IMG/VR virus record: IMGVR_UViG_3300031228_000003
Coordinates: 1 to 39,847 of that record
Source: a virus
Length of the DNA stretch: 39,847 nucleotides
Strand: one strand, 5' to 3'
Shown: positions 2,695 to 16,168 of the stretch, piece by piece
How positions within the stretch are numbered: position 1 is the stretch's first letter
Layout of the letters: each line of letters begins with the position of its first letter
Position numbers and translations under genes: made by a program
The notes under the pieces: generated by a model
The model's input: the letters and a program-made list of their open reading frames with translations, nothing else
Databases searched by the model: none
What the model was told of the DNA's origin: nothing

Positions 2695-2727
2695 TGACAG
2701 AGTAAACACAAGTCAAAGGGGTAAGTG

Positions 2728-2952
2728 ATGGGAAACGGAGTAAGCGAAGAGCGGATGCAATGGGTTATTGCCGCAATGAAACGGATAGCCGAAATCGAGT
2801 TGTTTGGAAAGGCAGAGATTGCCAAGATCAACGAAACCGAAATAACCCCGTTCGTTGAATTGATGACAGCCGAACAGGCGATAAGGATAATGGAAATCCT
2901 TATCGAAAACAGGCGGACAATTGAAGTCGAGCAAAGGAAGCGAGTGAAATAA
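2728..2952 (+). CDS. hypothetical protein
   Basis: ATG 2728 is preceded by AAAGGGG (GTG 2725 is an alternative start). The upstream 27 nt are duplicated at 4384..4410. Confidence 0.55.
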   Translation: MGNGVSEERMQWVIAAMKRIAEIELFGKAEIAKINETEITPFVELMTAEQAIRIMEILIENRRTIEVEQRKRVK

Positions 2953-3096
2953 AACTTCCGTCTCTGCAAACACCGGAGCCGATTATTGGGTGATAGGTAT
3001 CCGGGGGTTTGTGGGGTGGTCCGCTATGGGGTAGTCAAGGGTTTGAATGGAACCGACTTATTCGGGTTCGATTCCCGACGGACCGCAAAGGGTAGA

Positions 3097-3114
3097 GGGT
3101 ATAACGTTATGGGG
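3097..3114. repeat. PAL copy GGGT-ATAACGTTAT-GGGG
   Basis: Exact core. The arms are not complementary. It ends 5 nt upstream of the methyltransferase ATG. Confidence 0.9.
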
Positions 3115-3118
3115 TGCA

Positions 3119-3850
3119 ATGAATCATATAGATTTATTTAGCGGAATCGGCGGTTTCTCGTTAGCTGCAAAATGGGTATGGGGCGATGAGCACAAGGTTT
3201 GTGCCTTTGTAGAGCGGGACGAATTTTGCAGAAAGGTACTACGCAAACACTGGCCGAATGCTCCGATATTTCCGGACGTCACGTATTTCAACGGGAGGGG
3301 ATACAATGGACAAATCGACTTACTCACGGGGGGGTTCCCCTGTCAACCGTATTCATTCACCGGGAACCGTAGGGGCGCGAAAGACGACCGTGCGCTCTGG
3401 CCGGAGATGTTCAGAATCATTGACGAAGTCCGGCCCCGTTGGGTACTTGCAGAAAATGTGTTTGGGTTCGTTGAAATGGGGCTCGAAGAAACGATACTTA
3501 ACCTGGAGAGTATTGGTTACGAAACGGGGTCGTTCGTTATTCCGGCTGTTTCCGTCGAAGCCGATCACGAAAGAAATAGAATATGGATTGTTGCCTACTC
3601 TGACGCTGAACGACGGACAGAACACAACCCTTCCCCCGTCTATGGTGAATCGCAATGGGTCATTAGTGGGGCATCTTGTACGATTGGGGAAAGGGGGTTG
3701 CTTAAATCCGGAGTGGACGGAGCAGTTTATGGGTTACCCGGTCGGATGGACCGATATAGAATAAAGGCATTGGGTAACGCTATCGTTCCACAGGTAGCCG
3801 CAAACCTATTTGAGTTCATGAAAAAGGTAGATGAAAAGTTCAGGGCATAA
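3119..3850 (+). CDS. DNA (cytosine-5)-methyltransferase, minimal 243-aa form
   Basis: Motif I DLFSGIGG, motif IV GGFPCQPYS, motif VI LAENV, motif VIII-like HERNRIWIVA and motif X GNAIVPQV are all present. ATG 3119 gives the canonical MNHIDLFSGIGG N-terminus. The TAA stop lies inside degenerate PAL 3843..3860. Confidence 0.85.
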   Translation: MNHIDLFSGIGGFSLAAKWVWGDEHKVCAFVERDEFCRKVLRKHWPNAPIFPDVTYFNGRGYNGQIDLLTGGFPCQPYSFTGNRRGAKDDRALWPEMFRIIDEVRPRWVLAENVFGFVEMGLEETILNLESIGYETGSFVIPAVSVEADHERNRIWIVAYSDAERRTEHNPSPVYGESQWVISGASCTIGERGLLKSGVDGAVYGLPGRMDRYRIKALGNAIVPQVAANLFEFMKKVDEKFRA

Positions 3851-3860
3851 CGTTGTAGGC
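3843..3860. repeat. degenerate PAL copy GGGC-ATAACGTTGT-AGGC
   Basis: One core mismatch. It contains the TAA stop of the methyltransferase gene. Confidence 0.7.
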
Positions 3861-3873
3861 TAATCAAATCACA

Positions 3874-4023
3874 ATGTGCGAATATCTGGACATATCGGAT
3901 ATGTTGGGGAAGACCCTAACGAAGGTAGTTATCAAACGTCCCCCGTTGTTCGATGAAGATCGAATTACGTTCTATTGTGACGACGGAACAAGATACGTGA
4001 TGATCCATGAACAGCAAGAGTAA
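3874..4023 (+). CDS. small hypothetical protein (49 aa)
   Basis: Hand-translated ORF below the track cutoff (MCEYLDISDMLGKT...HEQQE). Its ATG directly follows the TAATCAAATCACA leader that also precedes gene 464. No Shine-Dalgarno is visible. Confidence 0.3.
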   Translation: MCEYLDISDMLGKTLTKVVIKRPPLFDEDRITFYCDDGTRYVMIHEQQE

Positions 4024-4101
4024 CGCGTTGCTGAAACGAGTGAATACCGAAGTTGTTTGTATGACGTGCGCGAAGGTTCAGCCGGGACCGGGAGAGTCGA
4101 T

Positions 4102-4407
4102 ATGAGCGAATGGACACAAACCCGAATCACGAGAGACGAGAAAGCTGAACCCGTAGAGTTCATAACCATAACGGACGGGGGCGTTTACTATATCGGGGAT
4201 GGGTGGTGTGAGGTCGTGCCGGGATCGTGGGGGTATTCAGAAACCCAATACAGATTCAGGATGAACGACGGGACCATTGCGGAGGTTAGGGCCGGAACGA
4301 TATACGGGAGTGCTCGGGAGCTTGCCGGGGAATGGTTGAAGCATTATCGGGAAAACCGGAAACCGTACAACGAAAGAAGGGATAACACAAGTCAAAGGGG
4401 GAAGTGA
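4102..4407 (+). CDS. hypothetical protein
   Basis: This is track ORF 4057..4407. ATG 4102 is preferred because of the GGGAGAG Shine-Dalgarno at about 4090. ATG 4057 is an alternative. Confidence 0.5.
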   Translation: MSEWTQTRITRDEKAEPVEFITITDGGVYYIGDGWCEVVPGSWGYSETQYRFRMNDGTIAEVRAGTIYGSARELAGEWLKHYRENRKPYNERRDNTSQRGK

Positions 4408-4510
4408 TGGAGAGATGGGGGCATTGGGTTAGCTGGGAAGCCGGGGAGATGATGGTAAGGCCGACCCCTTAACCCGCTGAATAATTCAACCTTTCATTTG
4501 AGTTATTACT

Positions 4511-4849
4511 ATGTTAGAATCCGCCGTCCCCTGTCCGGTCTGCAAATCAACCGGCACGAAACGTATCGGGATTCAGGTTCAGCGCATTGGCCGGAACGAA
4601 ATACACTTCTGTCGGGAGTGTTCCGACCGATACACGACAAAGAAGCGTGCCGCTGGCATATACATTGTCGATCGGGAATTTCGAATTCCGATCCTCCCGA
4701 AATGGTATATCGAAATAATCCGGACCGAGCAGACCAAGACAACCGAGAAGGACCGACGCAAAGCAGAGCGAAAGGAAAAGAAGCTAACCGAGTTCCTGCA
4801 AAAGAAGGGACTTGTTGAACCGAGCGAAACCGAAGCATTCACAGATTAG
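4511..4849 (+). CDS. zinc-ribbon protein with basic C-terminus (possible DNA/RNA-binding regulator)
   Basis: CPVC...CREC cysteine pairs lie in the first 40 aa, followed by a K/R/E-rich tail. The TAG stop abuts PAL 4849..4866. The competing frames 4498..4818 and 4509..4838 look non-coding. Confidence 0.6.
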   Translation: MLESAVPCPVCKSTGTKRIGIQVQRIGRNEIHFCRECSDRYTTKKRAAGIYIVDREFRIPILPKWYIEIIRTEQTKTTEKDRRKAERKEKKLTEFLQKKGLVEPSETEAFTD

Positions 4850-4866
4850 CCCATAACGTTATGGGC
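4849..4866. repeat. PAL copy GCCC-ATAACGTTAT-GGGC
   Basis: Exact. It shares its G with the TAG stop of gene 4511..4849. Confidence 0.9.
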
Positions 4867-4892
4867 TACCAAACCAAACAAGGGGAATCGAG

Positions 4893-5201
4893 ATGAGCAA
4901 AACGGCCGTGTTCGTTCCAGGCGAAGCGACGAAAGCATTCAAAGCAATTCGAGATGAACGGGAAAGGCAAAACGAAAAGTGGGGAGTTCAGACCCATTCA
5001 CTTTGCGGGTGGATTGCGGTTCTAACAGAGGAAGTGGGGGAAGCTGCAAGGGAAGCGTTGGATATTGAAATAAACCCTAAGCCGGGAAAACTCGGAGACT
5101 ATAGCGACGCGTTCGAACGATTCAGAAAAGAGATGGTTCAGGTTGCAGCCGTTGCGGTTCAGATACTCGAATACTTGGACCGGGACGAATTACCATTTTA
5201 A
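4893..5201 (+). CDS. MazG-like nucleotide pyrophosphohydrolase (putative)
   Basis: The pattern ERERQNEKWG..H....W..VLTEEVGEAARE ... EMVQVAAVAV matches phage MazG-like/dNTP-PPase domains as I recall them. Confidence 0.5.
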   Translation: MSKTAVFVPGEATKAFKAIRDERERQNEKWGVQTHSLCGWIAVLTEEVGEAAREALDIEINPKPGKLGDYSDAFERFRKEMVQVAAVAVQILEYLDRDELPF

Positions 5202-5218
5202 CCCATAACGTTACGGGG
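5202..5218. repeat. degenerate PAL copy CCC-ATAACGTTAC-GGGG
   Basis: One core mismatch. It starts immediately after the TAA stop of gene 4893..5201. Confidence 0.7.
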
Positions 5219-5237
5219 TCAACACATAGGGGAAGCA

Positions 5238-5492
5238 ATGGAGATACAAAATATCAGAATGCGGGAGAACCGAATATTGACCGGAGAGATTGACGGGGTG
5301 GAGTATATCGTAGCCGACATAATCGTAGCCGATGTTCGCACCTTGCAATCGGAGCGTGCCCAAGATGTGAGATTGACGATAGTTAAACGGCCCCCTATTC
5401 ACGAAGCATGGCAACGGGCACAGTCGGGACAGTGGGCGTTTCGTTGGACCTGCTACGACCTTAGACGATTAGAGAGATTCGATTCGGAGTAA
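5238..5492 (+). CDS. hypothetical protein
   Basis: 84-aa ORF with the initiation region AGGGGAAGCAATG, which recurs at 6981..6996. Confidence 0.55.
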   Translation: MEIQNIRMRENRILTGEIDGVEYIVADIIVADVRTLQSERAQDVRLTIVKRPPIHEAWQRAQSGQWAFRWTCYDLRRLERFDSE

Positions 5493-5500
5493 GTGACGCT

Positions 5501-5986
5501 ATGGCATACCGACCAAAGAACGCCGTTGATATTTTGCAGATGAGGTCAGAGCCAAAGCAGGAATGGATTAACCCGTTTGTCGCATTCATCTACGGTATAC
5601 ACGCAATCATACGTTTCATCTTAGACTTGCTCAATCGGGATGAGGCGACACGGGATGAAATGACATTAGCCCAAGCACAAAGGCTTATCGATGAGTATGA
5701 TAAAAAGCAGGTAACGGGGAAATGGGACGATGAAATTCCGAGCGACGTAGATGCATTCGTCGAAGTGTGCAAGATGTTCGGTCGGGCGGGAATTGTGATA
5801 GTACCCGATAACGTGCAAGTGGAAAGGACGGCAACCGACGGGACGTTAGTAACATTCCCGGAAACGGGTAGAATGCAACGCTCGTTAAAGACCTTGGAGG
5901 ATCGGATATTGCGTCAACCCGTCGGACTTGCTTCCGCAATCGCAGAACTACAAAGAACCAAACCGAACGAAGATGATAAAGCGTAA
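5501..5986 (+). CDS. hypothetical protein
   Basis: 161-aa ORF on the plus strand in the same series as its neighbours. Confidence 0.6.
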   Translation: MAYRPKNAVDILQMRSEPKQEWINPFVAFIYGIHAIIRFILDLLNRDEATRDEMTLAQAQRLIDEYDKKQVTGKWDDEIPSDVDAFVEVCKMFGRAGIVIVPDNVQVERTATDGTLVTFPETGRMQRSLKTLEDRILRQPVGLASAIAELQRTKPNEDDKA

Positions 5987-6350
5987 ACAATACTTCTCGA
6001 TTCCGGATTTGAAATGGACCGAAGTTTATACGGGGGTAGCGGAAAAGCACACGGCGGACGCAGGGGGCAGGACGTACGTTATTCACGGGTGGGACAATGG
6101 GGAGCGGACGGGGAAGGTGTACAACGGGAATATCTTCGACGCGTCAGACGATCCGGGAGACGAAGTATATTACCGTGTATGCTCCGACGTCTCCACACTT
6201 GGCGAAGCAAAACGAAGGTGTCAGGAACACTTTCGTTCGGTTATGGAAATCACGTTACAGCCTGAACCGTTGGTAATGAACGCATGGGTTTACGTGGCAA
6301 CTGTAGCCGTAATGACGATTAGCATACTGGTGACCCTCGCGATTATATAA
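5973..6350 (+). CDS. hypothetical protein with C-terminal transmembrane helix
   Basis: In-frame ATG 5973 of track ORF 5928..6350 gives a 14-nt overlap with the upstream gene. The C-terminus WVYVATVAVMTISILVTLAII is hydrophobic. Confidence 0.5.
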   Translation: MIKRKQYFSIPDLKWTEVYTGVAEKHTADAGGRTYVIHGWDNGERTGKVYNGNIFDASDDPGDEVYYRVCSDVSTLGEAKRRCQEHFRSVMEITLQPEPLVMNAWVYVATVAVMTISILVTLAII

Positions 6351-6395
6351 CCGGAACCATTCGGTTCCATCAATTCAATCAATCGGAGAAAGACA

Positions 6396-6689
6396 ATGGC
6401 AGACCGATTCGTAAAGATCACCGAAGACACGGGACACGTGAAAAAGGGGGAAGTGTACAAGACTCTTTCCCGTGACCGTTCCAGTGTGGAGATTATCGTA
6501 CATGGAAAGTACAACAGACCGGAAAGGGTATGGATCACGGACAAGCATTTCGAGTATACGGATGACTCGTCGGACGCAATCGATTTACACGATGAACTGT
6601 ATCCTCCGACGCAACAGCCGACCGCACCCGACGAACCGGAGACGACCGAAGCAAAGCCGACCGCAAAGCGAAAGACTGCAAAGAAGTGA
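6396..6689 (+). CDS. hypothetical protein
   Basis: 97-aa ORF with a GGAGA Shine-Dalgarno, followed by tandem PAL copies. Confidence 0.6.
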   Translation: MADRFVKITEDTGHVKKGEVYKTLSRDRSSVEIIVHGKYNRPERVWITDKHFEYTDDSSDAIDLHDELYPPTQQPTAPDEPETTEAKPTAKRKTAKK

Positions 6690-6695
6690 CCACCA

Positions 6696-6713
6696 CCCCA
6701 TAACGTTATGGGC
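6696..6713. repeat. PAL copy CCCC-ATAACGTTAT-GGGC (first of a tandem pair)
   Basis: It is part of the 24-nt direct repeat ACCCCATAACGTTATGGGCTAACC at 6695..6718 and 6721..6744. Confidence 0.9.
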
Positions 6714-6721
6714 TAACCCCA

Positions 6722-6739
6722 CCCCATAACGTTATGGGC
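6722..6739. repeat. PAL copy CCCC-ATAACGTTAT-GGGC (second of a tandem pair)
   Basis: See 6696..6713. Confidence 0.9.
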
Positions 6740-6755
6740 TAACCGAGGGAAGCAT

Positions 6756-7061
6756 ATGGTAAAACGATTCATGAACATCGTGGTTCCCGGTTCCGGCCCG
6801 CACGGGAGCGTAATTACGGGAACGCTCGGAGGGGGTGATACCCGGTATATTATCGGGTATATCGGACCGGACGGGGTGGAGATGGAACCGGGAGTAGGTC
6901 AACAGGTCAGACCACATCCGGACCTTGAGGGCGTTATCTGTGTCGACTTCGTATGCGTAGATAAAATGTCACTTGACGAATACAGGGGAAGCAATGAAAG
7001 AGTATTACAGAAATGTCAAGGTTCGGCGCGCAAGTGTCGGGATCTGCGATATTACGGGTGA
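6756..7061 (+). CDS. hypothetical protein
   Basis: 101-aa ORF with a GAGGGA Shine-Dalgarno. Its last 68 nt overlap the next gene and look poorly coding, so the 3' part is uncertain. Confidence 0.4.
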   Translation: MVKRFMNIVVPGSGPHGSVITGTLGGGDTRYIIGYIGPDGVEMEPGVGQQVRPHPDLEGVICVDFVCVDKMSLDEYRGSNERVLQKCQGSARKCRDLRYYG

Positions 7062-7218
7062 GGACCCATCGACTGGGTCAAGGTATTATCTGGGAATGAT
7101 TCTTGACGATGAAGGGAACGGCATAGAATTGATTTACGGTCAAAAGGCCGAGATAGTGGAGTCGACCAACGGGGGCGAAGTGATTAGGTTCTATAAAGAA
7201 ACCGAGGATGACGAATGA
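6994..7218 (+). CDS. hypothetical protein
   Basis: In-frame ATG 6994 of track ORF 6973..7218 is preceded by AGGGGAAGCA. Confidence 0.5.
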   Translation: MKEYYRNVKVRRASVGICDITGEDPSTGSRYYLGMILDDEGNGIELIYGQKAEIVESTNGGEVIRFYKETEDDE

Positions 7219-7634
7219 GGAACTTCAACATAGCGAAGAGTGACGACGGTTCGTATATCAGGGCCAGCCTACAAACCGGCAATGATCCTACATTCAAAGT
7301 CGAATCATTCTGGTTCCACGTTATGTTAACCGGAGAGAAGGGGACGCGCTCGGAACGTTGGGTATGGACCTTGTACAATGGTCCATACCAGATTGATTCG
7401 GGGAACAGGGGGACGGACTTTGCGGCAATCCGGGAAGCCGTCGAAAGGCTGAAGGTATATATAATAACCTTGTACAACAAGGTAACGGAAACCAATTTCC
7501 AGCTATGGTATACGGAACGGAAGGTAGACCAAAGGCAATTCATCGATTCAATACCAACACCGAACGGGGGAGCGAATGGAGGAGCGGAAACCGACGGAGC
7601 GGACGCAGCAGTTCCAGTGGATACAGAAGTGTGA
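7215..7634 (+). CDS. hypothetical protein
   Basis: 139-aa ORF with an ATGA overlap with the upstream gene. Confidence 0.6.
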   Translation: MRNFNIAKSDDGSYIRASLQTGNDPTFKVESFWFHVMLTGEKGTRSERWVWTLYNGPYQIDSGNRGTDFAAIREAVERLKVYIITLYNKVTETNFQLWYTERKVDQRQFIDSIPTPNGGANGGAETDGADAAVPVDTEV

Positions 7635-7875
7635 TGGAACCTTGTGGATATACAAGGCAGCCGGATACACGATCCGTATAACGTCAGCCACAACAACGTC
7701 ATACAAGTGGCGACTGTATGACGTAACCGGAGAACTGCTGTACATTGACGATGTGAGGATAGAGGGGGAAGCGGAAGACTTGGATGAGGCAAAGCACAAT
7801 TCGGAATACGGATTAATGGGTTACCTTGCTTGGGTCAAGGATCGAATTAGGATGAATAACGGGATAAGCCCATAA
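7576..7875 (+). CDS. hypothetical protein
   Basis: 99-aa ORF with a GGGGGAG Shine-Dalgarno. The TAA stop lies inside PAL 7868..7885. Confidence 0.55.
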   Translation: MEERKPTERTQQFQWIQKCDGTLWIYKAAGYTIRITSATTTSYKWRLYDVTGELLYIDDVRIEGEAEDLDEAKHNSEYGLMGYLAWVKDRIRMNNGISP

Positions 7876-7885
7876 CGTTATGGGC
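7868..7885. repeat. PAL copy GCCC-ATAACGTTAT-GGGC
   Basis: Exact. It contains the TAA stop of gene 7576..7875. Confidence 0.9.
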
Positions 7886-7944
7886 TTGCATCGAACCGGG
7901 AGATATGTTATATTGTCCCTGTTCACCTTCGCTTCCCCGCGAAT

Positions 7945-7990
7945 ACAGGGGCACCCTTTAAGTGATTTGTGGGTGCCCCTGTTTATTTAA
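7945..7990. terminator. intrinsic terminator between convergent blocks
   Basis: Perfect 12-bp stem ACAGGGGCACCC (7945..7956) / GGGTGCCCCTGT (7971..7982) with a 14-nt loop. It is followed by TTATTT on the plus strand. Confidence 0.75.
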
Positions 7991-8459
7991 AGCCAATGAT
8001 CTTTTCAGCGTTCCGGCTTATCACTTCCTGAATCTCTTCAATGTCTTCGTCCTGAACAACCGCAATCGGACGGGGTGGGAATATACCTATCATGGGGCCA
8101 CCCCATATCTCGCGCCTATCTCCAAAGTGATGAGTCGGGAAATCTTCTCTTGCACTCGACACGACAACACCCCGAGGGGTAGGGACAACAACAATAGATG
8201 CCTTAAGGTGTGCCGTATCGGTTAGAGTAATCCCCCCTTCCTCCCGCACTCTATGCGATAGAGGCCAGCGTTCAGAGCCACCCCCATACGGTCCGCTCCC
8301 GTACCGACCCCCTACGTTAAAGTTCTCGTCAATACTCGATTTGATTATTAGGGCAATCTCTCCCATCACCCGATGTAAATCAAATTCATCCCGTTGCGCT
8401 TTCGCTAATGCTCTTTGTAGCTCGTCGGCCTGAACTTGTATCTCTGATAACTTAGCCAT
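7983..8459 (-). CDS. Mu gpG-like virion morphogenesis protein (putative)
   Basis: In-frame ATG 8459 (MAKLSEIQ) starts 1 nt after the upstream stop. The position after the Mu F-like gene supports the call, as do the segments ..ERWPL.. and ..THHFG.. typical of this family as recalled. Confidence 0.5.
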   Translation of the reverse strand: MAKLSEIQVQADELQRALAKAQRDEFDLHRVMGEIALIIKSSIDENFNVGGRYGSGPYGGGSERWPLSHRVREEGGITLTDTAHLKASIVVVPTPRGVVVSSAREDFPTHHFGDRREIWGGPMIGIFPPRPIAVVQDEDIEEIQEVISRNAEKIIGFK

Positions 8460-8460
8460 A

Positions 8461-9258
8461 TCACAGCACCCCCCGTTCCCGCGAACGTTCGTCGGTTTCC
8501 TGCCGACGTTTGACAAGGAAGTTTCGATACGCTTGTGTTAGCCCCTTGGGATATTTACTTACGTCCGGTTCGTATTCATCCAATGGGGTTTTGTTGAACC
8601 CTTCGGATGCTTGCCAGTCGCTACCCGTATCCTCGTCAAGTATACTTAACCCCTTACGACGAACTTCACTCTCGGAGAGACTTGAAACAGTAGTTCGACA
8701 CTGATAGTGATTCGGTCCGATTGCACGTTTAAGCAGGGGGTGACTGTGGTGCAATACCTTGCCGCCGATGACCGACTCAAGTTTACGGCATATATCCGAT
8801 TGTCTGGAATCGTTAACAAAGTTGAAACGTCTGTACGGTCGTTCATTCAGGAACTCGTTTTGTTGTATCATTTGTCCGGCCGATAGTGCAGATTGTACGT
8901 TCGTCCGGAATATGGTTTCCAGTCGATGGGGGGTCAGCTTGACCGTTCGTGTTCCCCCGTCTTCCGTCGGCTGCGTTATCGTATCGCCTACTCCGATCGA
9001 TGCAAGCCGGTCCTCTAATTCCTCTTTCCATTGCTCGACAGTTAGACCCGTGCCGACGGCATCGACGAGGGAATTACGTAACTCCGTCAGTATATCCATT
9101 CGGAGAACTCCCGCACTGGTAAACGTCGTGTTATGCGCACGGTCCAACATATCACGCCACGTGTCGGTTATCTTGTATCCCTTACTGGCAAGGTATTTAA
9201 CGGCTTCTTCCGGGGGTAGGTTGAATGCCGCACGGAAATCAATCGGGTTCAGGTTCAT
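8461..9258 (-). CDS. head morphogenesis protein, Mu gpF / SPP1 gp7 family
   Basis: It lies immediately downstream of the portal gene. The C-terminal signature is D.RQSDICRKL..GKV....HP....GPNHYQCRTT. Confidence 0.8.
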   Translation of the reverse strand: MNLNPIDFRAAFNLPPEEAVKYLASKGYKITDTWRDMLDRAHNTTFTSAGVLRMDILTELRNSLVDAVGTGLTVEQWKEELEDRLASIGVGDTITQPTEDGGTRTVKLTPHRLETIFRTNVQSALSAGQMIQQNEFLNERPYRRFNFVNDSRQSDICRKLESVIGGKVLHHSHPLLKRAIGPNHYQCRTTVSSLSESEVRRKGLSILDEDTGSDWQASEGFNKTPLDEYEPDVSKYPKGLTQAYRNFLVKRRQETDERSRERGVL

Positions 9259-9290
9259 TATCGTATGTCCGTTTTCTTGAAGATTTCGAG

Positions 9291-9309
9291 GGGGTATAAC
9301 GTTATGGGC
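9291..9309. repeat. PAL copy GGGGT-ATAACGTTAT-GGGC
   Basis: Exact core, within composite element copy B. Confidence 0.9.
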
Positions 9310-9331
9310 TGATTCTGTGCAAATTTGAGGG
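9310..9331 (-). promoter_or_regulatory. CCCTC-box copy (minus strand CCCTCAAATTTGCACAGAATCA)
   Basis: It lies between PAL copies 9291..9309 and 9329..9346. Confidence 0.6.
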
Positions 9332-9346
9332 TATAACGTTATGGGC
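9329..9346. repeat. PAL copy GGGT-ATAACGTTAT-GGGC
   Basis: Exact core. On the minus strand it abuts the TAG stop of the portal gene. Confidence 0.9.
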
Positions 9347-11073
9347 TATTCGACCTCCGCCACCGCTCCCGCAATCGCTGCAAGGAACTGGCTTTGTATA
9401 ACATCTGATTCCAACTTACCCGTATCGATCATATCGAACGCTTCTGGAGTCAACAGGAATTCCTCTATCTCTTTGGCGGACATTCCCGATAGTCTCTCTT
9501 TGATTGCGTCGACCATAGGCGCAACCGTTGCCGACACTTCCCGTTCGTCAAGTGCAACCCCAAGCACGGTTTCCGTTGCCGCTTGGGGTTGGGTTAATCC
9601 TTCGCCCAATTCAACGGCAAACCGTTTGTTGTCGAGTTGCTTCGGAACATCACCCTCCGGAAGGGTGCGATTAAATCCCGGTCCGGGTGCAACGGGTGCG
9701 GACACTCCGAACGAATCGGCAGGGAACAGGCCGAGTGCATCCGGATAGTCATAACCAAACGCCGTCATTGCCGCATTAATGCAGATGTTCCGGGGAAGCA
9801 TTCCGCTTGCATAAGCTACCTGATACTGGTACAGGGTTGTGAGACCGCCGACGGTAAAGCGTACCTGATTAGACGATATACTCGGAATCTTGAATGAGTC
9901 AATTTCCAGACCGTAGGTCTTCGCGTAATACTCTTTGTTGAAGATTATGCCGTGGTCCTTTGCAAGTCCCGTATCCCGGTTCAGAATGTTTATATCGAAC
10001 TTCTCCTTTTTGCGAAGCTCGATCCATGGAAGTCGCTCCGGTTCGAGTCCGTAGTTCATCACGTTGATATAATTGATCAACGTGAAAAAGAACTGTTCGA
10101 CAAGGCGCGCCCCACTGACTACGATATCCTCCCGAACCTGAACGGCCGTCTCTTGGTCCCCCAATGCTCCCGGCGTTCCGTTCATTGCCCCGTCATGCCC
10201 TAACCATATCTGCGTGATTATACTATCGACGTACTCGATTGCTTCTCTGTAGATAGCGGAGTTCGAACTTGAACCCGTTGACTTGACATCGGCCGATACC
10301 GATTCAGGGAGAACAAGGATACCGTCCTGATACATTTCAAGTACCGTGTTCGCAAGTTCCTGAACCTTACCATCTTCTTCAAAGAACACAGGGTTATACG
10401 TGATCGTAGGCCACGGCATACCATAGCGTTCGGCAAAGAGAAGCCAGAATTCAAGGTTAGTCTTTTTGATCTGAACAGGCCAGTAACACTGTTCCAGATT
10501 TGACTTGCCGTACGGGTTCGTTGCCGTCGGTTGATTGCGGGATATGATAACCTTCATCGGGTGTTCGATCGGTTCGCCCCCGTGGTTATGTATACTCCGG
10601 AATAGCAACTTACCCGTGTCGTCAAAGCCAAACCATTTAGCCGGTTTGAGCGTTGCCGCTACGGGGTCGATACGTCCGGCCGGTCCCCCCTTCCATTCGA
10701 TCTCGTGAACAGCATACCCGTATTGTTTGGCCGTTAGTATCTCTTCAATTAGTTGCATTATCGGGAGCGATTCAATAACAGCCTGAATCTCCGTGAATAT
10801 GTCAACCGGACAATCTCCCGGAATTACGGTAAACTCCCGGCTGGTAACTCCGGCATTGAATGCCTGAATTGCCGCACTTACCTTACCGTCCGATAACAGT
10901 TCATCGTAAACGGTAATATCCCTCCCGATCTTGTTAAGCAGGGTGGAGGGATTCGGCATAATCTTGAGCAGACCGGACAACGCTTGTGCAACGCTCCCGA
11001 AACTACCTCGTGCCGTTCGGGTGTTGATCGTGTCCGGCTTTAATAGTGCCGCTACATTTCCTTTGTGTGCCAT
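9346..11073 (-). CDS. portal protein (Mu gp29 / DUF935-like)
   Basis: 575 aa, placed between the large terminase and the Mu F-like gene. The N-terminal region resembles DUF935 portals. The TAG stop abuts PAL 9329..9346. Confidence 0.8.
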   Translation of the reverse strand: MAHKGNVAALLKPDTINTRTARGSFGSVAQALSGLLKIMPNPSTLLNKIGRDITVYDELLSDGKVSAAIQAFNAGVTSREFTVIPGDCPVDIFTEIQAVIESLPIMQLIEEILTAKQYGYAVHEIEWKGGPAGRIDPVAATLKPAKWFGFDDTGKLLFRSIHNHGGEPIEHPMKVIISRNQPTATNPYGKSNLEQCYWPVQIKKTNLEFWLLFAERYGMPWPTITYNPVFFEEDGKVQELANTVLEMYQDGILVLPESVSADVKSTGSSSNSAIYREAIEYVDSIITQIWLGHDGAMNGTPGALGDQETAVQVREDIVVSGARLVEQFFFTLINYINVMNYGLEPERLPWIELRKKEKFDINILNRDTGLAKDHGIIFNKEYYAKTYGLEIDSFKIPSISSNQVRFTVGGLTTLYQYQVAYASGMLPRNICINAAMTAFGYDYPDALGLFPADSFGVSAPVAPGPGFNRTLPEGDVPKQLDNKRFAVELGEGLTQPQAATETVLGVALDEREVSATVAPMVDAIKERLSGMSAKEIEEFLLTPEAFDMIDTGKLESDVIQSQFLAAIAGAVAEVE

Positions 11074-11074
11074 A

Positions 11075-11092
11075 GCCTATAACGTTATGGGT
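11075..11092. repeat. PAL copy GCCT-ATAACGTTAT-GGGT
   Basis: Exact core. It lies between the large terminase stop and the portal start. Confidence 0.9.
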
Positions 11093-11097
11093 TGGGA

Positions 11098-12420
11098 TTA
11101 AAAACCTCTATCTCTCAATCGTCCCCGTCTCTTGCTCCGACGTTCCAGACTCTTATCAACTCCGACCCCCTTCGTAGAATTCGGACGATGAAGCGAATGA
11201 TTCCCGGAACCTTCACGGGGAATAACGTACTTAAGACCGTGCGTGTACATTGCGTATCGCATAGCGTCCAAGGCATGATCTTGCAGTTTGACCGGTTCGT
11301 CAAGTATCATCCCCCGATACTCCCGGAATTCATACAGGCTGAACTCTCTTTCGAGATTTGGGGAATTATCCTCGACAATGATACGGTTATTCTGACAGAA
11401 TCGTATTCCATCGATTACCGACTTGTTCGAAGGCGACGCGTTAAACCCCTTCAATTGCAATTCCCGAATCCGGTTCGGTTCCGCACTATCGCAATAGATC
11501 GGGATGGATCGTTTCCCCTTGGGAATCTCCCGTTCCAGTATTTCATGCAATAGGGTGTCGTTCACTTGGGTATCATACAGAACCTCCCGTACCCGAACCG
11601 TTCGCATTTCCTGCCATTGCACGTGTACAACGGCAAGGGGGGAATTTATACCGAAGTCGATTCCGTATGCTTCGGTTATCGGGGTGACAAGGGCTCCGGT
11701 TTCGTCAACGCTCCACGTGCTATATATGACGTGCTCCGGAACGGCCCACTTACCCTTGTCGTATACGTCCCCCGCCATCTTGGATAGTGTGTACTGCTCC
11801 TGATATTCGAGGATCGTTTCAGGGTCGAGGAAATCGTTATCTCTCCACGTGCTATGAATAAGCTTCGTTCGGTCCCCGTACTTTCCCTTGATGTGGATAT
11901 CCTGATTGATCCAATGGTAAAAGTTGATCGGGTTATACGACAAGATGATTTGCTTATAACAGTCGGTGTATCCGCGGAGACGACGGTTCAGTTCGTTGAA
12001 ATCGTTAAACCGTAGTTCGGTCGCCTCTTCAATCCACATTGACGAAATGCCGGAAATCGATTTGAGTTTTTCGGGATCGTCAATGCCTTTGAAGATACAG
12101 GCGTTCCCGTTCAACAAGCATTCAATTTCCAGTAGCCCCCTGCGGATATTGAACAGGTGAGAGATGCCCCACTGTTCGATAACGTTGCATATCTCCCGAA
12201 AGCAACTCTGACGAATCGAGTTCCCTATCTTCCGGATCACAAGGCAACGAAAACCCGTATCCTGCAACATCCGATAGACAACCTTTTGTGCAGCCGCTAC
12301 GGACTTGCCCGAACCGGCACCACCCCACAGATGAAAGAAACGGGTTTCGTCGAAAAGGAAATCGTGATATATCGGATTGACGACGTCCGACGATAACGAT
12401 ATTTCCACGGGGCTATTCAT
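11098..12420 (-). CDS. terminase large subunit
   Basis: Walker A WGGAGSGKS and a nuclease-type C-terminal half are present. ATG 12420 has an AGGAG Shine-Dalgarno 7 nt upstream. ATG 12435 is an alternative start. Confidence 0.85.
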   Translation of the reverse strand: MNSPVEISLSSDVVNPIYHDFLFDETRFFHLWGGAGSGKSVAAAQKVVYRMLQDTGFRCLVIRKIGNSIRQSCFREICNVIEQWGISHLFNIRRGLLEIECLLNGNACIFKGIDDPEKLKSISGISSMWIEEATELRFNDFNELNRRLRGYTDCYKQIILSYNPINFYHWINQDIHIKGKYGDRTKLIHSTWRDNDFLDPETILEYQEQYTLSKMAGDVYDKGKWAVPEHVIYSTWSVDETGALVTPITEAYGIDFGINSPLAVVHVQWQEMRTVRVREVLYDTQVNDTLLHEILEREIPKGKRSIPIYCDSAEPNRIRELQLKGFNASPSNKSVIDGIRFCQNNRIIVEDNSPNLEREFSLYEFREYRGMILDEPVKLQDHALDAMRYAMYTHGLKYVIPREGSGNHSLHRPNSTKGVGVDKSLERRSKRRGRLRDRGF

Positions 12421-12937
12421 CGGAATACTCCTCATCGTATCCGTTACCCATATCGTGTCCGATCCGTTGTGCTTCCTGCAATTTCAATTCATAGATCTTT
12501 CGCTTTGCCTCTTCCTTCCGCCTCTGCAATGTCGGGTCGAGTTTTATCGTTACCGTCGTATTCGTAATTCCAATGTTCGTAGTGGGGGATGGTTTGCGGA
12601 ATCCGGATTCCGGTCTATGCGATAACCACCACTTCGAAAGATCGTCTTTCCTGAATTCATCCGCTTCCGGATCGGTTATGACTTCCGCTATGTTGTCACT
12701 TGCAGCATCGTCTATTGATGCTTTCAGGTCGTCACTCAATCGCTTTAACTGGGGATGCCGTCGGCACCAGTACGAGATAGCGGCCGGTTCGACCTCAAGT
12801 AATCGAGCGGCCTGTTTCATTATCCCCCGACTTGCTTTCAGGGCATCGGCTACCCGTTGCACGGTCAACCCTTTGTTTGCAGACGTGGTAGCGACCGGAA
12901 CGGGTAGGGTCTTTTTAATCGGTTTCGGCTTTGCCAT
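12413..12937 (-). CDS. terminase small subunit (putative, HTH-containing)
   Basis: It lies directly upstream of, and overlaps, the large terminase gene. An HTH-like segment is MKQAARLLEVEPAAISYW. Confidence 0.55.
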   Translation of the reverse strand: MAKPKPIKKTLPVPVATTSANKGLTVQRVADALKASRGIMKQAARLLEVEPAAISYWCRRHPQLKRLSDDLKASIDDAASDNIAEVITDPEADEFRKDDLSKWWLSHRPESGFRKPSPTTNIGITNTTVTIKLDPTLQRRKEEAKRKIYELKLQEAQRIGHDMGNGYDEEYSDE

Positions 12938-12956
12938 TTTAGCGTGGGTTCATTCA

Positions 12957-12974
12957 GCCCATAACGTTATGGGC
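12957..12974. repeat. PAL copy GCCC-ATAACGTTAT-GGGC
   Basis: Exact. It lies in the divergent region between the leftward and rightward late blocks. Confidence 0.9.
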
Positions 12975-12994
12975 AAGGGTTAAACGGTTCGTCT

Positions 12995-13024
12995 TTTACA
13001 AGGTAGGTCATAGACGGATATATT
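12995..13024 (+). promoter_or_regulatory. sigma70-like promoter candidate for the late rightward operon (near-leaderless)
   Basis: TTTACA (12995..13000), an 18-nt spacer, then TATATT (13019..13024). ATG 13030 follows 5 nt later with no Shine-Dalgarno. Confidence 0.35.
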
Positions 13025-13029
13025 CCTAC

Positions 13030-14157
13030 ATGCCTAAGACTTACGAAATAGAGTGCTTCTATCCGGGAGAACATCGGCTTTCCTCCGGTGACCGTTGGGT
13101 ATTCACAATCTCCCAACTGCAAAGGTCCGTCGATCTGTATAACCGACGGGTTGCCGGGGGTGGGAATTACGCTCCCGTTGTGCTCGGTCACCCGGAAGAC
13201 AACGCACCCCAATTCGGTTTCGTAAAGCGTGCGTTCATAGAGGATAACGCACTATGGTTGGAGGTTGTTGTAAACGACAACCTCAACGGCTGGTTAGAGG
13301 AGGGGTACTATCCGGAGCGGTCAATTTCGTTCTACGATGAAATCGACCCGAAGACCGGAGAGAAATATCTATACTTGGATCATATCGGTTTCCTTGGAGC
13401 GGTTCCCCCCGCACTTGCCAACCTCCGGAACGATGGTCTCCCCATTCCGGAAGAGTGGATTAAGCAACCCTCCAAGAAACCGGCAATGGCTTTTTCATTA
13501 CCGACCGAATATAAATTCATCAATGCAACGGACGGCAAGCGAACACCGTCCAAGAACAAACGGAGTTTTGCAATGGAAGAACAGGAAGCAAGAGAACTCT
13601 TTACGGAAATGTTCAACGAGAACATTACTCCAATTACCGAAACCCTTAATCAGATTCGTACTGATATTCAGGGGATTCAGGAGCAACTAAGCGGGGGTGA
13701 GGAAGAGCCGGAAGAGGAGGTCGAAGCGGAAGAGGCTGCAAAGCCGGACCCGGCATTCAGTGCGTTTGCCAAGAAGATTAACGACGGACAGACGCAGATG
13801 TCGGCCGAGATTATGGCTATCCGAAATGAGACGTCGGCACATAAGTTTTCGGCGTGGCTGGACTCTGAAAACGTCCGGTCCCGGATGACGAAAGAGACGA
13901 GAGAAAAAGCTATTAAGATGTTCTCTTCACTTGCTACGAAGGGGAAAGCGTTTAGCGTAGGGGCGAACGGGACGACGGAAGATTCCGAAGAGATCACGAG
14001 TTTCAAGGAAATGATTGAATCGCTTCCGGCTATTGCTCCAACGGGTGCGGACGTATATACGAACGGGAAGGCTTTTTCTTCGTTCCATCCCGCTACCCGT
14101 GGTAACGGTGTGAGCGTAGAGGAGCAGGCGAAGCGCATCGAAAAGATGCTTCGCTAA
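13030..14157 (+). CDS. head maturation protease / scaffold fusion (Mu gpI-like, putative)
   Basis: It lies before the decoration and capsid genes. The N-terminal 130 aa resemble Mu I-type protease (..PVVLGHPED..FGFVKRAF..ALWLEV..). The C-terminal half is acidic and coiled-coil like a scaffold. Confidence 0.5.
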   Translation: MPKTYEIECFYPGEHRLSSGDRWVFTISQLQRSVDLYNRRVAGGGNYAPVVLGHPEDNAPQFGFVKRAFIEDNALWLEVVVNDNLNGWLEEGYYPERSISFYDEIDPKTGEKYLYLDHIGFLGAVPPALANLRNDGLPIPEEWIKQPSKKPAMAFSLPTEYKFINATDGKRTPSKNKRSFAMEEQEARELFTEMFNENITPITETLNQIRTDIQGIQEQLSGGEEEPEEEVEAEEAAKPDPAFSAFAKKINDGQTQMSAEIMAIRNETSAHKFSAWLDSENVRSRMTKETREKAIKMFSSLATKGKAFSVGANGTTEDSEEITSFKEMIESLPAIAPTGADVYTNGKAFSSFHPATRGNGVSVEEQAKRIEKMLR

Positions 14158-14187
14158 ATCGTAGCCGATTTAATCGTTCGGTTCCTA

Positions 14188-14205
14188 CCCCATAACGTTA
14201 TGGGC
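14188..14205. repeat. PAL copy CCCC-ATAACGTTAT-GGGC
   Basis: Exact core. It lies between the scaffold and decoration genes. Confidence 0.9.
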
Positions 14206-14235
14206 TAACACTCAAAATATTGGAGATATACAGCA

Positions 14236-14664
14236 ATGGCCAAGGACCTTGTAGTAGATAGCACGTCTTACGATCCGAAAGACGACCTGATTGCCGGACA
14301 CACTCCCGAACTCCGAACCCGTCGTATCCTGCTTGCAGCCTCACAAGGTGCGCTTGTACGGGGACAGGTTCTGAAAATGGATCTTGCAGACCATACGACC
14401 GGGGCCGTGAAGGGGACAACGACAAACGTTACCGACGTTCTTATAGCCGGTGCAACCGCCGGACATACGCTTGTTCCCGTCTACATTCTCTCGGAGGATA
14501 TAGCAGATGACGTCGGCACACAGTACGTGACCGTGTACGAGTGCGGCACGTTCAACGAAGAAAAGGTTCTCGAACTTTTCGACGCTGCACCTACGGCACA
14601 GGAAACACTTCTGTTCCGGGAGAACTGCCGGATTCACGGAATCTTTCTCCGCAAGGTAATCTGA
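14236..14664 (+). CDS. head decoration protein (lambda gpD-like)
   Basis: It lies immediately upstream of the E-like capsid gene. The segment YVTVYECGTFNEEKV parallels lambda D TLTFYKSGTFRYEDV. Confidence 0.55.
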   Translation: MAKDLVVDSTSYDPKDDLIAGHTPELRTRRILLAASQGALVRGQVLKMDLADHTTGAVKGTTTNVTDVLIAGATAGHTLVPVYILSEDIADDVGTQYVTVYECGTFNEEKVLELFDAAPTAQETLLFRENCRIHGIFLRKVI

Positions 14665-14720
14665 TAACCGACCGCCAATAATTCACTTAACGAATTCACT
14701 AACAACAATAGAGGAACGGC

Positions 14721-15761
14721 ATGGTTTACGATGAAGTAATTATGGCGGTCGCCAACGGTGAAGAACTCGACAAGAAGCGGGAAACCCGTTTCTTCCTCGA
14801 CAAGTTCTTCCCGTCGGGTGATGCCATTGGAACGAATTACGTTCGTCTCCTGAAATCAGTTGACGAACACGGGATTGCATCTTTCGTTCTTCCCCGTGAA
14901 GAGGCGAAAGTGGTAGGTGAACCGGGATATACTTCGCAGCTTATTGAAGCTCCGGTTATCCGGGAGAAGATTATTTATACCCCTGAAGACCTGCTCGAAC
15001 TCGGGGCCGCTCCCGGCTCTATCCTTCGGATGAGCGAAGGGGAAACGACCGATCAGGCCGCGGAGCGTCGCATTGCGCGGGGTCTGCTTAAGCTGCGGAA
15101 TCGAGCACTCCGGCGGGAGGAGGCTATGGCAATCGGAGCACTCTCCGGAGGGTGGACCTATGACGATGGCGAAGGGGTAGCCCTTGACGTTGACTTTGCA
15201 TTCCCTGTTGCAAATAAATTTGCACTTGCCGGGGGTGACATTTGGGGATCGACAACGGAGGATAAGGTTGGCCAGCTTGAAGACTGGATTAGAGTTACGG
15301 AAGAGTTCGGGGGTAACGTAACCGATATTGTTATGGGTCATCGTGCGTACCAACGTTTCATTACGGATACTGCCGTACAAGAGCTTTACGACAAGAACAA
15401 TATCCGTATCGGTGCGCTCGACAACACGAACCGAACCGATCGGTTTGCACGCGGCACGTGGGGAACAGCCCTTATTCACAAGGTATCCGAGCCGGTCAAG
15501 CTCGAAGACGGATCGACGATTAACCTTGTCGATCAGGATGGGGTCTGGATCATTTCCGACGCAATGGAAACGGATAAGGTATATGCGCGAATTGCTATAC
15601 TTGATCCGGAGACTAACCGTCCGATCAGTGCGCAGACTTCGATATACTCTAAGGAGTTCGTTTCGGGTGACGATCTACAGACCCTCGGACTTCTGTATGT
15701 ATCCCGTCCGTTCCCGATCCTCGCGAATCCGGGATCGGTTACGTTCGTCGAAACGGCATAA
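14721..15761 (+). CDS. major capsid protein (lambda gpE family)
   Basis: 346 aa. N-terminal FFLDKFFP and C-terminal PFPILANPGSVTFVETA parallel lambda E (LFLRLFF; PLMLLADPDEFVSVQLA). Confidence 0.8.
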   Translation: MVYDEVIMAVANGEELDKKRETRFFLDKFFPSGDAIGTNYVRLLKSVDEHGIASFVLPREEAKVVGEPGYTSQLIEAPVIREKIIYTPEDLLELGAAPGSILRMSEGETTDQAAERRIARGLLKLRNRALRREEAMAIGALSGGWTYDDGEGVALDVDFAFPVANKFALAGGDIWGSTTEDKVGQLEDWIRVTEEFGGNVTDIVMGHRAYQRFITDTAVQELYDKNNIRIGALDNTNRTDRFARGTWGTALIHKVSEPVKLEDGSTINLVDQDGVWIISDAMETDKVYARIAILDPETNRPISAQTSIYSKEFVSGDDLQTLGLLYVSRPFPILANPGSVTFVETA

Positions 15762-15764
15762 TAG

Positions 15765-15829
15765 TTATCCCGGTGCGGTTCCCTTTTCAGAGTGACGTTT
15801 AGGCATGGATCGGGAACCGGCCGGGATAA
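15765..15829 (+). terminator. long hairpin after the major capsid gene (attenuator or stabiliser; no T tract)
   Basis: TTATCCCGGTGCGGTTCCC (15765..15783) pairs with GGGAACCGGCCGGGATAA (15812..15829). That gives 16 bp with a small internal bulge. Confidence 0.5.
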
Positions 15830-15869
15830 TCCCCCACTAACTATAACATAAATCCGAAGGGTGATATAA

Positions 15870-16114: not shown

Positions 16115-16117
16115 TAC

Positions 16118-16158: not shown

Positions 16159-16168
16159 TGGTGAGGAT

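Follow-up and report, generated by a model that had tools for sequence, protein, structure and literature searches.

Why should a phage carry the same 64-bp intergenic element twice, in opposite orientations and 21 kb apart? The question is raised by IMG/VR virus record IMGVR_UViG_3300031228_000003, analysed here over its full 39,847 nucleotides (the window), in which the element occupies positions 9269-9332 and 30403-30467. Bases 1-127 are an exact repeat of bases 39721-39847; thus, the window represents a complete phage genome, assembled as a closed circle of 39,720 bp with 51% GC, and family scans of its proteins assign it to the tailed phages. The 64-bp element consists of two diverged copies of a short box on either side of one copy of a palindrome (PAL) that recurs throughout the genome. 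PAL is likely a binding or loading site for a protein of the ParB family (parS-type), as suggested by its identity with palindromes associated with plasmid parB genes. The reading preferred here for the whole element, in which PAL is such a site and the protein bound to it gates the box, itself a weak promoter core or a regulator's site, is given a probability of about 0.35.

The element was first described from the sequence alone as an inverted pair with about six differences, and alignment bears this out: the reverse complement of 9269-9332 differs from 30403-30467 by five substitutions and one 1-nt indel, and a repeat finder delimits two arms of 56 nt (9271-9326 and 30410-30465) that are 93% complementary. 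The locations given in that sequence-only reading also hold. One copy is directly upstream of the Mu F-like head gene (MuF; 8461-9258, minus strand; Phage_Mu_F / phrog_220), and the other lies in a large non-coding gap of 502 nt, the hub (30269-30770). The portal-MuF gap is a tandem of two PAL-plus-box units, all on the minus strand: an upstream PAL (9329-9346), which abuts and overlaps the portal stop codon and opens the first unit; box copy a' (CCCTCAAATTTGCACAGAATCA; 9310-9331), with a 1-nt deletion relative to the hub copy; the PAL of the 64-bp element (GCCCATAACGTTATACCC on the sense strand; 9292-9309), which combines one canonical with one variant half-site; and box copy b' (CCCTCGAAATCTTCAAGAAAACGG; 9269-9292), which shares bases with the PAL flank and stops 10 nt short of the MuF start codon (ATG, 9258). 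In the hub, where all features are on the plus strand, a pseudo-PAL (CCCCGTTTCGAAACCC; 30390-30406) occupies the place of PAL ahead of box a (CCCTCAAAATTTGCGCAGAATCA; 30404-30426), and PAL (GCCCATAACGTTATACCC; 30427-30444) and box b (CCCTCAAAATCTTGCAGAAAACCG; 30444-30467) follow; within the 64-bp element, one PAL stands between box a, CCCTCAAAATTTGCGCAGAATCA, and box b, CCCTCAAAATCTTGCAGAAAAC. Further along the hub are a second PAL (GGGTATAACGTTATGGGG; 30556-30573) and boxes c and d (CCCTCGAAAATTC) with a partial third copy (30578-30628), beyond which a hairpin with a T-run occupies 30631-30660. In all, the hub holds a cluster of five to six boxes in one orientation.

The box was originally counted as a 23-nt motif present four times. 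All four copies are confirmed, and the count proves too low, with at least 11 box-like copies in the genome. The pattern CCCTCAAAATTTGCNNNGAATCA, allowing up to 3 mismatches, retrieves 16118-16140 (plus strand, 1 mismatch), 30404-30426 (plus strand, 0 mismatches) and 35539-35561 (plus strand, 3 mismatches), where shuffled sequences lead one to expect 0.00; the fourth copy, 9310-9331 (minus strand), escaped the pattern search solely through one missing A. Exact matches to CCCTCRAAAWYT lie at 9281 (minus strand), 16118, 30404, 30444, 30578, 30600 and 35539, and degenerate copies are at 14209, 31913 and 39632-39660. The consensus is (A/C)CCCTCRAAAT(T/C)T...AGAAnC, roughly 22 nt. The shorter word CTCRAAAW has 13 sites in the genome, nine of them non-coding, and all nine are on the sense strand; the four boxes of the sequence-only reading, too, are each on the sense strand of the flanking genes, as had been noted.

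Outside the portal-MuF gap, the copies are all on the plus strand. A canonical PAL (16097-16114) after the stop codon of gene 15870-16097 is followed by the box at 16118-16140 and by a variant PAL (GGGCATAACGTTATAGGG; 16141-16158) that lies 10 nt before the ATG at 16169; the gene so preceded, correctly anticipated as a connector gene, is that of a head-tail adaptor (16169-16630, plus strand; phrog_195, Mu_Gp36). A second canonical PAL (35518-35535), after gene 35162-35518, precedes the box with 3 mismatches at 35539-35561, which continues into an AATCACA leader, a Shine-Dalgarno (SD) sequence and the ATG at 35578. PAL with a degenerate box (ACACTCAAAATATTGGAG; 14188-14231) is found upstream of the decoration gene, and PAL (GCCCATAACGTTATACCC) with another (CCCTCGCAAATCAC; 31898-31935) upstream of gene 31942, while two box-like copies (TTTTCAAAATTTC, CTCGAAAATCC; 39632-39660) lie without PAL in the 374-nt gap after the gene of an HTH_36 protein. 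The recurrent unit is PAL then box, in place of the PAL-box-PAL architecture proposed earlier: PAL immediately precedes every box copy except 30404 and the 39632-39660 pair, the box being offset from the PAL centre by 8, 10, 14, 14, 14 and 15 nt, and PAL-then-box stands on the sense strand at about seven places in the genome, the 64-bp element among them. For an element that is intergenic, consistent in orientation and adjacent to PAL, a cis-regulatory role is a reasonable expectation.

The palindrome is far more widespread than the box. Its consensus, GCCCATAACGTTATGGGC, is matched with at most 1 core mismatch at 34 sites, 32 of which are outside coding sequence in a genome that is 8.5% non-coding (p ~2e-32). 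PAL occupies nearly every intergenic gap, in the early and late blocks and on both gene strands, at about one site per 1.2 kb. Many copies abut or overlap the upstream stop codon, and some lie 4-8 nt ahead of start codons that lack an SD sequence, as at the genes for the portal and the methyltransferase and at genes 18493 and 23541 (PAL-to-start segments 11075-11097, 3097-3118, 18473-18492 and 23520-23540, respectively); the methyltransferase start is probably 3119 rather than 3047. The ten-base core (ATAACGTTAT) is near-invariant and is flanked on each side by the triplet CCC or GGG. These flanks (left/right) are C/G in 21 copies, C/C in 3, G/G in 8 and G/C in 1, such that the two sides are independent (Fisher p=1.0); in about one copy in three, one half-site departs from the canonical form, and eleven are incapable of forming a hairpin past the AU core. 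Since the flanks vary independently, hairpin pairing is not what appears to be selected, and no U-tract or T-run follows PAL at any copy, though canonical terminators with T-runs exist elsewhere in the genome. Together, flank independence and the missing U-tract argue for a DNA site that is read half by half; PAL is probably not a hairpin, and the complementarity of its arms is probably not under selection. Some copies share longer flanks: PAL plus CTAATCAAATCACA is found at 426-453 and 3846-3873 (93% identical), AGGGGGTATAACGTTATGGGGT is found at 72, 3094, 9289 and 30553, and PAL is duplicated in tandem at 6696/6722.

The identity of PAL is indicated by its occurrence outside the phage. The exact 18-mer GCCCATAACGTTATGGGC is present at 20 genome loci and 75 metagenome loci of public collections, and in 50 of these 95 it falls within a canonical parB and is translated as AHNVMG, part of the linker that joins the ParB_N and HTH_ParB domains; one such parB matches ParB_N at 5.5e-31 and HTH_ParB at 2e-13 (Pfam), and the host genomes of these loci range from 33 to 69% GC. 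The parA-parB operons of Scytonema hofmanni UTEX 2349 (L024:243-1011) and one metagenome-assembled genome (L036:2070-2825) each have a parB linker with six PAL-like repeats, translated as successive THNVMG/NNVIG peptides, and a single exact PAL shortly past the stop codon. To avoid the bias of an exact-word search, plasmid ParB homologues were also sampled by protein similarity and not by PAL. Of the 383 records so obtained, the majority came from Deinococcus, Thermus, Nostoc and other cyanobacteria, and six were fetched. In five of the six plasmid parB genes, an AACGTT-centred perfect palindrome is found at the same linker position: TACCCATAACGTTATGGGTA in Chroococcidiopsis and in Picosynechococcus PCC 7003 (L126:760-2613), TTACTGATAACGTTATCAGTAA (CTGATAACGTTATCAG) in Stanieria, GCTACCCAAAACGTTTTGGGTAGC (CCCAAAACGTTTTGGG) in Thermus thermophilus TF27 and GGCCATAACGTTATGGCC (GCCATAACGTTATGGC) in Thermus aquaticus p61; the linker of Deinococcus radiodurans pMP1 has none. 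Both arms are changed in Stanieria (peptide TDNVIS) and in T. thermophilus TF27, and the encoded peptide shifts along with the site among Stanieria, T. thermophilus TF27 and T. aquaticus. The Picosynechococcus variant is a 20-mer with four copies on the plasmid, one in parB, one 36 nt upstream of parA and two non-coding downstream of parB, so that three of the four are non-coding and flank parAB.

A palindrome that is conserved as DNA, has arms that differ in concert from one species to another, flanks parAB in further copies and sits inside parB bears the marks of a centromere site. Since PAL is identical to the parB-associated palindrome of this cyanobacterial/Thermus ParABS clade, in which the arms co-vary and copies flank parAB, it is most likely a parS-type site. 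The identity with parB-associated palindromes rests on good evidence, unlike any function of the box. A parS within parBm has been demonstrated by experiment on the megaplasmid of Thermus thermophilus (parSm), with a sequence different from that of PAL (PMC4409726, PMC10085754). No mention of the PAL sequence was found in the searchable literature, where an AACGTT-centred parS embedded in parB across plasmids likewise appears to be undescribed. The PAL scan was considered as a guide to the host and set aside in that role: the cyanobacterial enrichment stems from parB genes and not from prophages, and the phage has no HIP1 (GCGATCGC) site. On the PCC 7003 plasmid, the copy upstream of parA is preceded by CCCGAAAATTTGAGG, the reverse complement of which, CCTCAAATTTTCGGG, agrees with the phage box at 11 of 14 positions, a single instance that may be due to chance. 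A group of Joint Genome Institute (JGI) contigs, Ga01631xx (L097, L040, L042, L051, L059, L061, L064, L066, L067, L070, L081 and L101), represents an unrelated element of 44-49% GC with small genes and an exact PAL between each, set in a longer cassette (...AAAAAGCRAYGAGRGAGTAAST-PAL-AAACTCTCATCC-ATG); it encodes a 340-aa protein with a GGRNRTAAI motif, and nothing in the element resembles the proteins of the window.

Palindromes of this kind also recur among phages. No cultured relative of the phage is found: megablast against phage records gave no match, and the best portal identity by tblastn against phage records is 31%. Relatives bearing PAL are absent from IMG/VR, and neither a portal search of GTDB genomes nor a TerL search of JGI metagenomes recovered any relative. 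The usable relatives are two fragments, L007 for the structural module and L013 for the early module. L007, from Antarctic soil, shares the structural module at 41-63% protein identity; TCCATAATATTATAGAAGC stands there ahead of both terS and MuF and again behind the neck gene, and L007 also has AAAACGTTTT and ATAACGTTAT cores (sites 3943-3963, 7569-7589, 8893-8913 and 9631-9640, with the ATAACGTTAT core at the contig end). In L007, TCCATAATATTATAGAAGC immediately precedes the start codons of terS and MuF, both without an SD sequence, and its TATTAT ends 6-8 nt before the ATG and could double as a -10 hexamer for leaderless transcripts. L013, an early-module relative (identity of the ParB-like protein 32%, helicase 41%, HTH_36 protein 46%), carries nine intergenic copies of CTCAACTCCCAACGTTGGGAGTTGAG (2046-15023), whose half-sites are of two types, ACTCCCAAC and ACTTCMAAC; where its tail operon ends, the palindrome is lengthened to a 17-bp stem, and a 751-nt hub-like gap follows. 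The L013 16-mer is also found at least 19 times in an unrelated phage, the IMG/VR contig IMGVR_UViG_2873306619_000001 (L113-L119, L123; 43.9 kb, 61% GC), as the identical core of CACCTCCCAACGTTGGGAGGTG, of which at least 19 copies lie directly after stop codons, with arms (CACCTCC/GGAGGTG) that form an anti-SD/SD pair. Intergenic palindromes centred on AACGTT thus recur across a group of phages, and their arms differ from genome to genome.

The PAL-binding protein could be the ParB of a host plasmid or the phage's own product of gene 32780-34177 (plus strand). The latter is a candidate by virtue of a ParB/Srx-fold motif (ADGFHR...GAN..HG..RT) in its 465 aa, which is followed by an adjacent helix-turn-helix (HTH; ADGFHR...VSQPFVGK). 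Several observations weigh against a phage-encoded ParB system: neither a canonical ParB nor a ParA is present in the window, the assignment of the 32780-34177 product is weak (sulfiredoxin E=0.004, PHROG 4e-7), its structure model is poor (mean predicted local distance difference test score 46) and unfit for a fold search, and a ParB-like homologue adjoins the helicase in contig L015, which has no palindrome array. A general link between ParB-like proteins and palindrome arrays was also considered and dropped, given this homologue without an array and no such protein in 37 kb of the 43.9-kb UViG_2873306619.

Whether the box is a promoter is the less certain half of the argument. The sequence-only reading had noted TTGCGC/TTGCAC/TTGCAT 18 nt before TATACC/TATAGG in three copies and had taken this as weakly sigma70-like. 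The hexamer geometry is as described, and orientation and intergenic position agree with a promoter; the reading falters in that a T at -7 is missing, only 3 of at least 11 boxes are covered and promoter scans reject it. A -35-like TTTGCR/TTGCRY at the right distance (18-19 nt) occurs only at PALs preceded by a box, all three of which have the rarer TATA-type right half. The hexamers TTGCGC, TTGCAC and TTGCAT match TTGACA at 3-4 of 6 positions, TTTGCA matches the TTTACA of the genome's own promoter at 5 of 6, and the hexamer pair of the sequence-only reading amounts to 8 of 12 consensus matches. Alternatively, CRAAAT, which carries A at -11 and T at -7, may serve as the -10 hexamer. This reading suits every box copy, would place starts at the conserved AGAA purines and would give MuF and gene 35578 sensible leaders.

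The standard of comparison is the one clear promoter of the genome, TTTACA-18-TATATT (12995-13024, plus strand), which ends 5 nt before the protease ATG at 13030, a start without an SD sequence. From this, the host uses sigma70-type promoters and leaderless starts, and the late transcript from 13030 is probably leaderless; in L007, GATATT lies 7 nt before the protease ATG. At the other end of the late operon, two strong terminator hairpins (30277-30365) close transcription, for which reason the early promoter must lie in the hub; the clustering of boxes there favours a start signal.

Against a promoter at the box stand many particulars. TATACC/TATAGG have the A at position 2, with C or G at position 6, and in the copy at 35539, boxes b, c and d and the degenerate copies there is no -10 hexamer behind the 18-nt spacer. 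Consensus sigma70 scans list neither promoter reading at the boxes and find no consensus site in the hub. Two of the three cases of a box followed by a TATA-type PAL are copies of each other, and at the adaptor gene the TTGCRY-TATA reading would begin the transcript inside the SD sequence. The CRAAAT reading has neither a -35 hexamer nor the TG of an extended -10, and it would cut into the SD sequence at 14236. At 14211 and 16118, predicted starts would truncate the SD sequence. The offset from PAL to box varies (8, 10, 14 and 15 nt), which is ill-suited to a fixed activator geometry. Failure of the 23-nt motif to recur in related genomes had been named beforehand as something that would weaken a regulatory interpretation, and the box is absent from L007 and L013, the only two related fragments, and at the syntenic portal-MuF and adaptor junctions relatives have just a PAL-like site; it is absent as well from 486 kb of other PAL-bearing DNA. 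Taken with the points in its favour, a box that acts as a weak, AT-rich promoter core or as a regulator site is plausible. Other known signals were tried and rejected: sigma54, extracytoplasmic function, Bacteroidetes-type and Bacillus alternative-sigma promoters were compared by eye and none fits, the sequence does not fit an integration host factor site (WATCAANNNNTTR), and nut-like boxA/boxB elements are disfavoured in that the PALs following boxes are non-hairpin variants.

Joined together, these features suggest the following mechanism, in which binding, promoter activity and gating are what we infer. A ParB-family protein, either the ParB of a host plasmid or the phage 32780-34177 protein, would bind or load at PAL. 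The box would be the AT-rich core of a weak, -35-poor promoter, which is the weakest step of the scheme; transcription might use CRAAAT as the -10 hexamer and start at the conserved AGAA purines, or, in the three cases of box then PAL, might use TTGCRY as the -35 hexamer and TATAcc/gg in the downstream PAL as the -10 hexamer. Given a PAL 8-15 nt ahead of the box, and in some cases one 28 nt behind it, a protein bound at PAL, or sliding from it, would occlude starts at the box. The PAL-box modules may thus represent ParB-gated starts that serve the early operon (from the hub), the replication module (35578) and three sets of structural genes: MuF-neck, decoration and major capsid, and adaptor-tail. 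The 64-bp element would be a tandem pair of promoter cores that share one PAL, duplicated once into the portal-MuF gap and oriented with the local genes.

The arrangement of boxes in the hub invites another explanation, in which a DNA-binding protein of the phage would recognise the box as its iteron or operator; candidates include the initiator-like HTH_36 protein (39109-39450) and the product of the first early gene. The hub cluster would then serve as an origin or as a copy-control or auto-regulatory array, with the single copies, including the 64-bp element before MuF, as accessory sites. Boxes c and d form a direct tandem repeat of 22-nt period with a T-rich stretch behind it, boxes a and b are spaced 40 nt apart, and the pair of box-like copies without PAL lies right behind the HTH_36 gene. 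The 5' core CCCTCRAAAT is also far better conserved than the remainder, as a protein contact would be, and no promoter consensus is present at the boxes. However, origin-like AT-rich repeats are more obvious at 39450-39700 than in the hub; iterons need not follow gene orientation, yet the sole copy in the minus-strand block is inverted with its genes; most boxes stand alone, within a few nt of a PAL and with a start codon 25-50 nt away; and no cognate protein was identified for the box. An iteron or operator is a strong rival reading, though on balance unlikely. That the box has no function of its own, and is with the 64-bp pair a hitch-hiking flank of PALs that spread by recombination or gene conversion, is less likely again. 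The phage does encode an Erf annealing protein, other PAL-plus-flank subfamilies and the tandem duplication at 6696/6722 do exist, and the box is lineage-specific. Set against this, at least 11 copies share a 10-nt core while their 3' parts diverge, which resembles selection and not uniform decay, and the core meets the PAL flank in either of two registers (offsets of 8-10 or 14-15), which implies that copies arose independently; moreover, copies without PAL exist at 39632-39660, and the box is concentrated in the two regulatory gaps.

An element that acts in RNA, with PAL as an intercistronic hairpin and with the C-rich, anti-SD-like start of the box (CCCCCTC) or an A/U tract controlling translation or RNase processing, is improbable. 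Canonical PALs can make an 8-bp hairpin right after stop codons, the unrelated contig with at least 19 palindromes has the anti-SD/SD arms described above, and at the 35539 copy only, the box pairs with a downstream GGGGG SD sequence (z=-2.4). Yet the two 64-bp copies fold no better than shuffled sequences (z=-0.71 and +0.81), nor does the hub leader (z=+1.0); the PALs inside the composite (GCCC...ACCC) are unable to form a hairpin, C.A mismatches arise in the sense strand from the variant TATAGG halves, and the two flanks of PAL do not covary (Fisher p=1). Rfam gave no credible match for the whole window at the gathering threshold or for the hub at E<=1, and MuF has no G-rich SD sequence with which the box could pair. 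The inverted copies might also be substrates for recombination that inverts the 21-kb segment between 9.3 and 30.4 kb, or for module-exchange crossovers, which is very improbable indeed. The pair is 56-64 nt long, 91-93% identical and inverted, and the Erf recombinase is at hand; but the arrangement is identical in two other assemblies (ENA and Logan samples), the divergent gene layout is conserved in L007 at ~40-60% protein identity, no site-specific recombinase was found among the proteins scanned and the remaining box copies have no inverted partner.

The preferred reading, of a ParB-family site that gates a weak start, has partial precedents. The parS of Bacillus subtilis is located in spo0J. 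With the parS of plasmid ParABS systems, PAL shares an 18-22-bp perfect palindrome with central ACGT, identical to the palindrome in or next to parB of the cyanobacterial/Thermus clade, and arms that co-vary between species of the ParB clade as they do between related phages. It differs in that the uncultured phage has 32 copies over nearly all gaps of 39.7 kb, in contrast to 1-7 around parAB, lacks parA and a canonical parB and has one non-canonical half-site in about a third of its PALs. Dispersed palindromic sites of the ParB family are found near promoters in RK2 (KorB/OB, with KorA/OA; 12 sites) and N15 (SopB; 4 sites), where they act in silencing and partition. By analogy only, OA next to some OB sites provides a model for PAL plus box; however, PAL is far denser, the box is unlike OA and no KorA-like partner was identified. 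In Cluster A mycobacteriophages, stoperators (L5 gp71) are asymmetric, oriented sites of 13 bp, and the phiC31 repressor binds conserved inverted repeats. Like these, PAL is present in tens of copies in short intergenic gaps of early and late operons and differs between related phages; unlike them, it is symmetric and independently matches the plasmid parS type, and neither a repressor nor an integrase was recognised in family scans of the window proteins. The likeness to sigma70 promoters lies in TTGCRY-18-TATAcc/gg in three copies, CRAAAT in all and a correct orientation and position before genes, and the difference in a box that fails the scan consensus and is unlike the promoter at 12995-13024. 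The PeSL cassettes of T4-like phages are repeated promoter-plus-palindrome modules that flank small ORFans and contain terminator-like stem-loops and early sigma70 promoters. Here, too, module copies are more alike than their surroundings and stand beside small ORFan genes, but PAL shows no selection for pairing and the box promoter is only putative.

The genome around these modules is divided into three blocks. A minus-strand block (12937 down to 7983) encodes a possible terS product, TerL, a Mu-type portal, MuF and a neck protein, and a plus-strand block (13030-30268) encodes the protease, decoration protein, major capsid protein, adaptor, tail proteins and a 1468-aa protein. The early block, also on the plus strand, begins past the hub and crosses the record origin to ~7900; it includes the ParB/Srx-like protein, Erf, a helicase, the HTH_36 protein, a DnaC-like protein and a C5 methyltransferase, and the majority of its proteins have no family match. 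No tRNAs were found in the window. A base-for-base identical sequence is present in ENA assembly ERZ27256897 and Logan assembly SRR9005026. The C5 cytosine methyltransferase gene is at 3119-3850, and the genome has 53 AACGTT sites where ~10 are expected. The 87-nt portal-MuF gap (9259-9345, minus strand) is open and in phase with both genes, such that read-through of the portal TAG would fuse them; this fusion was set aside, as an open in-frame linker of 87 nt is expected by chance in ~1 of 4 cases.

Several further features lie in or near the non-coding gaps. The AT-rich stretch at 39450-39700, directly after the HTH_36 initiator-like gene, has repeated TACT/ATACTRA words and makes a more convincing candidate origin than the hub does. 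At 32300-32375, 20470-20525 and 30631-30660, canonical terminator hairpins with T-runs have the next gene within ~25 nt, with no space for a promoter, and that at 30631-30660 sits between the hub boxes and the first early gene; terminators so close before genes suggest attenuation or antitermination, or a short hub transcript. A leader motif, AATCA(A)ATCACA, is conserved 10-25 nt ahead of the start codons of early genes only (447, 3867, 30749, 31127, 31921, 32353 and 35557), and at 35557 the 3' end of the box (AGAATCA) fuses with it. A perfect palindrome, CCTACGATCGTAGG / CTACGATCGTAG, is present twice, at 30374-30389 and 30688-30701 on either side of the hub, and looks like a separate operator pair; its right copy (30688-30701) falls within the spacer of a weak TTGCGT-17-TACCTT.

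Dispersed ParB sites with a role in regulation are known from RK2 KorB, phage N15 and Noc, and phage operator arrays from the L5 stoperators and the phiC31 repeats. What appears to be new is a plasmid-type parS that saturates a phage without a canonical ParB, a second motif linked to PAL and a family of AACGTT-centred parS sites within parB. If PAL is a working site of this type, it would point to a host range, as the corresponding ParB clade is concentrated in cyanobacteria and Deinococcota. If the box is a promoter core, it would represent a non-canonical, ParB-gated class of promoter; if it is not, the 64-bp repeat would be merely a duplicated intergenic cassette. If PAL works as a parS-type site, the phage would have the densest known array of ParB sites on any replicon. 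The broadest form of the proposal is tentative and on balance doubtful: the phage would be filled with 32 host-plasmid parS sites, the host ParB or the phage ParB/Srx-HTH protein would load genome-wide, the boxes would be ParB-controlled promoters, and L013, L007 and UViG_2873306619 would do likewise with AACGTT variants. Were this true, genome-wide loading of ParB could silence the phage genome, partition it as a plasmid-like prophage or out-compete a resident plasmid, and the phage would be a candidate case of a virus that borrows a plasmid centromere for silencing, segregation or plasmid competition.

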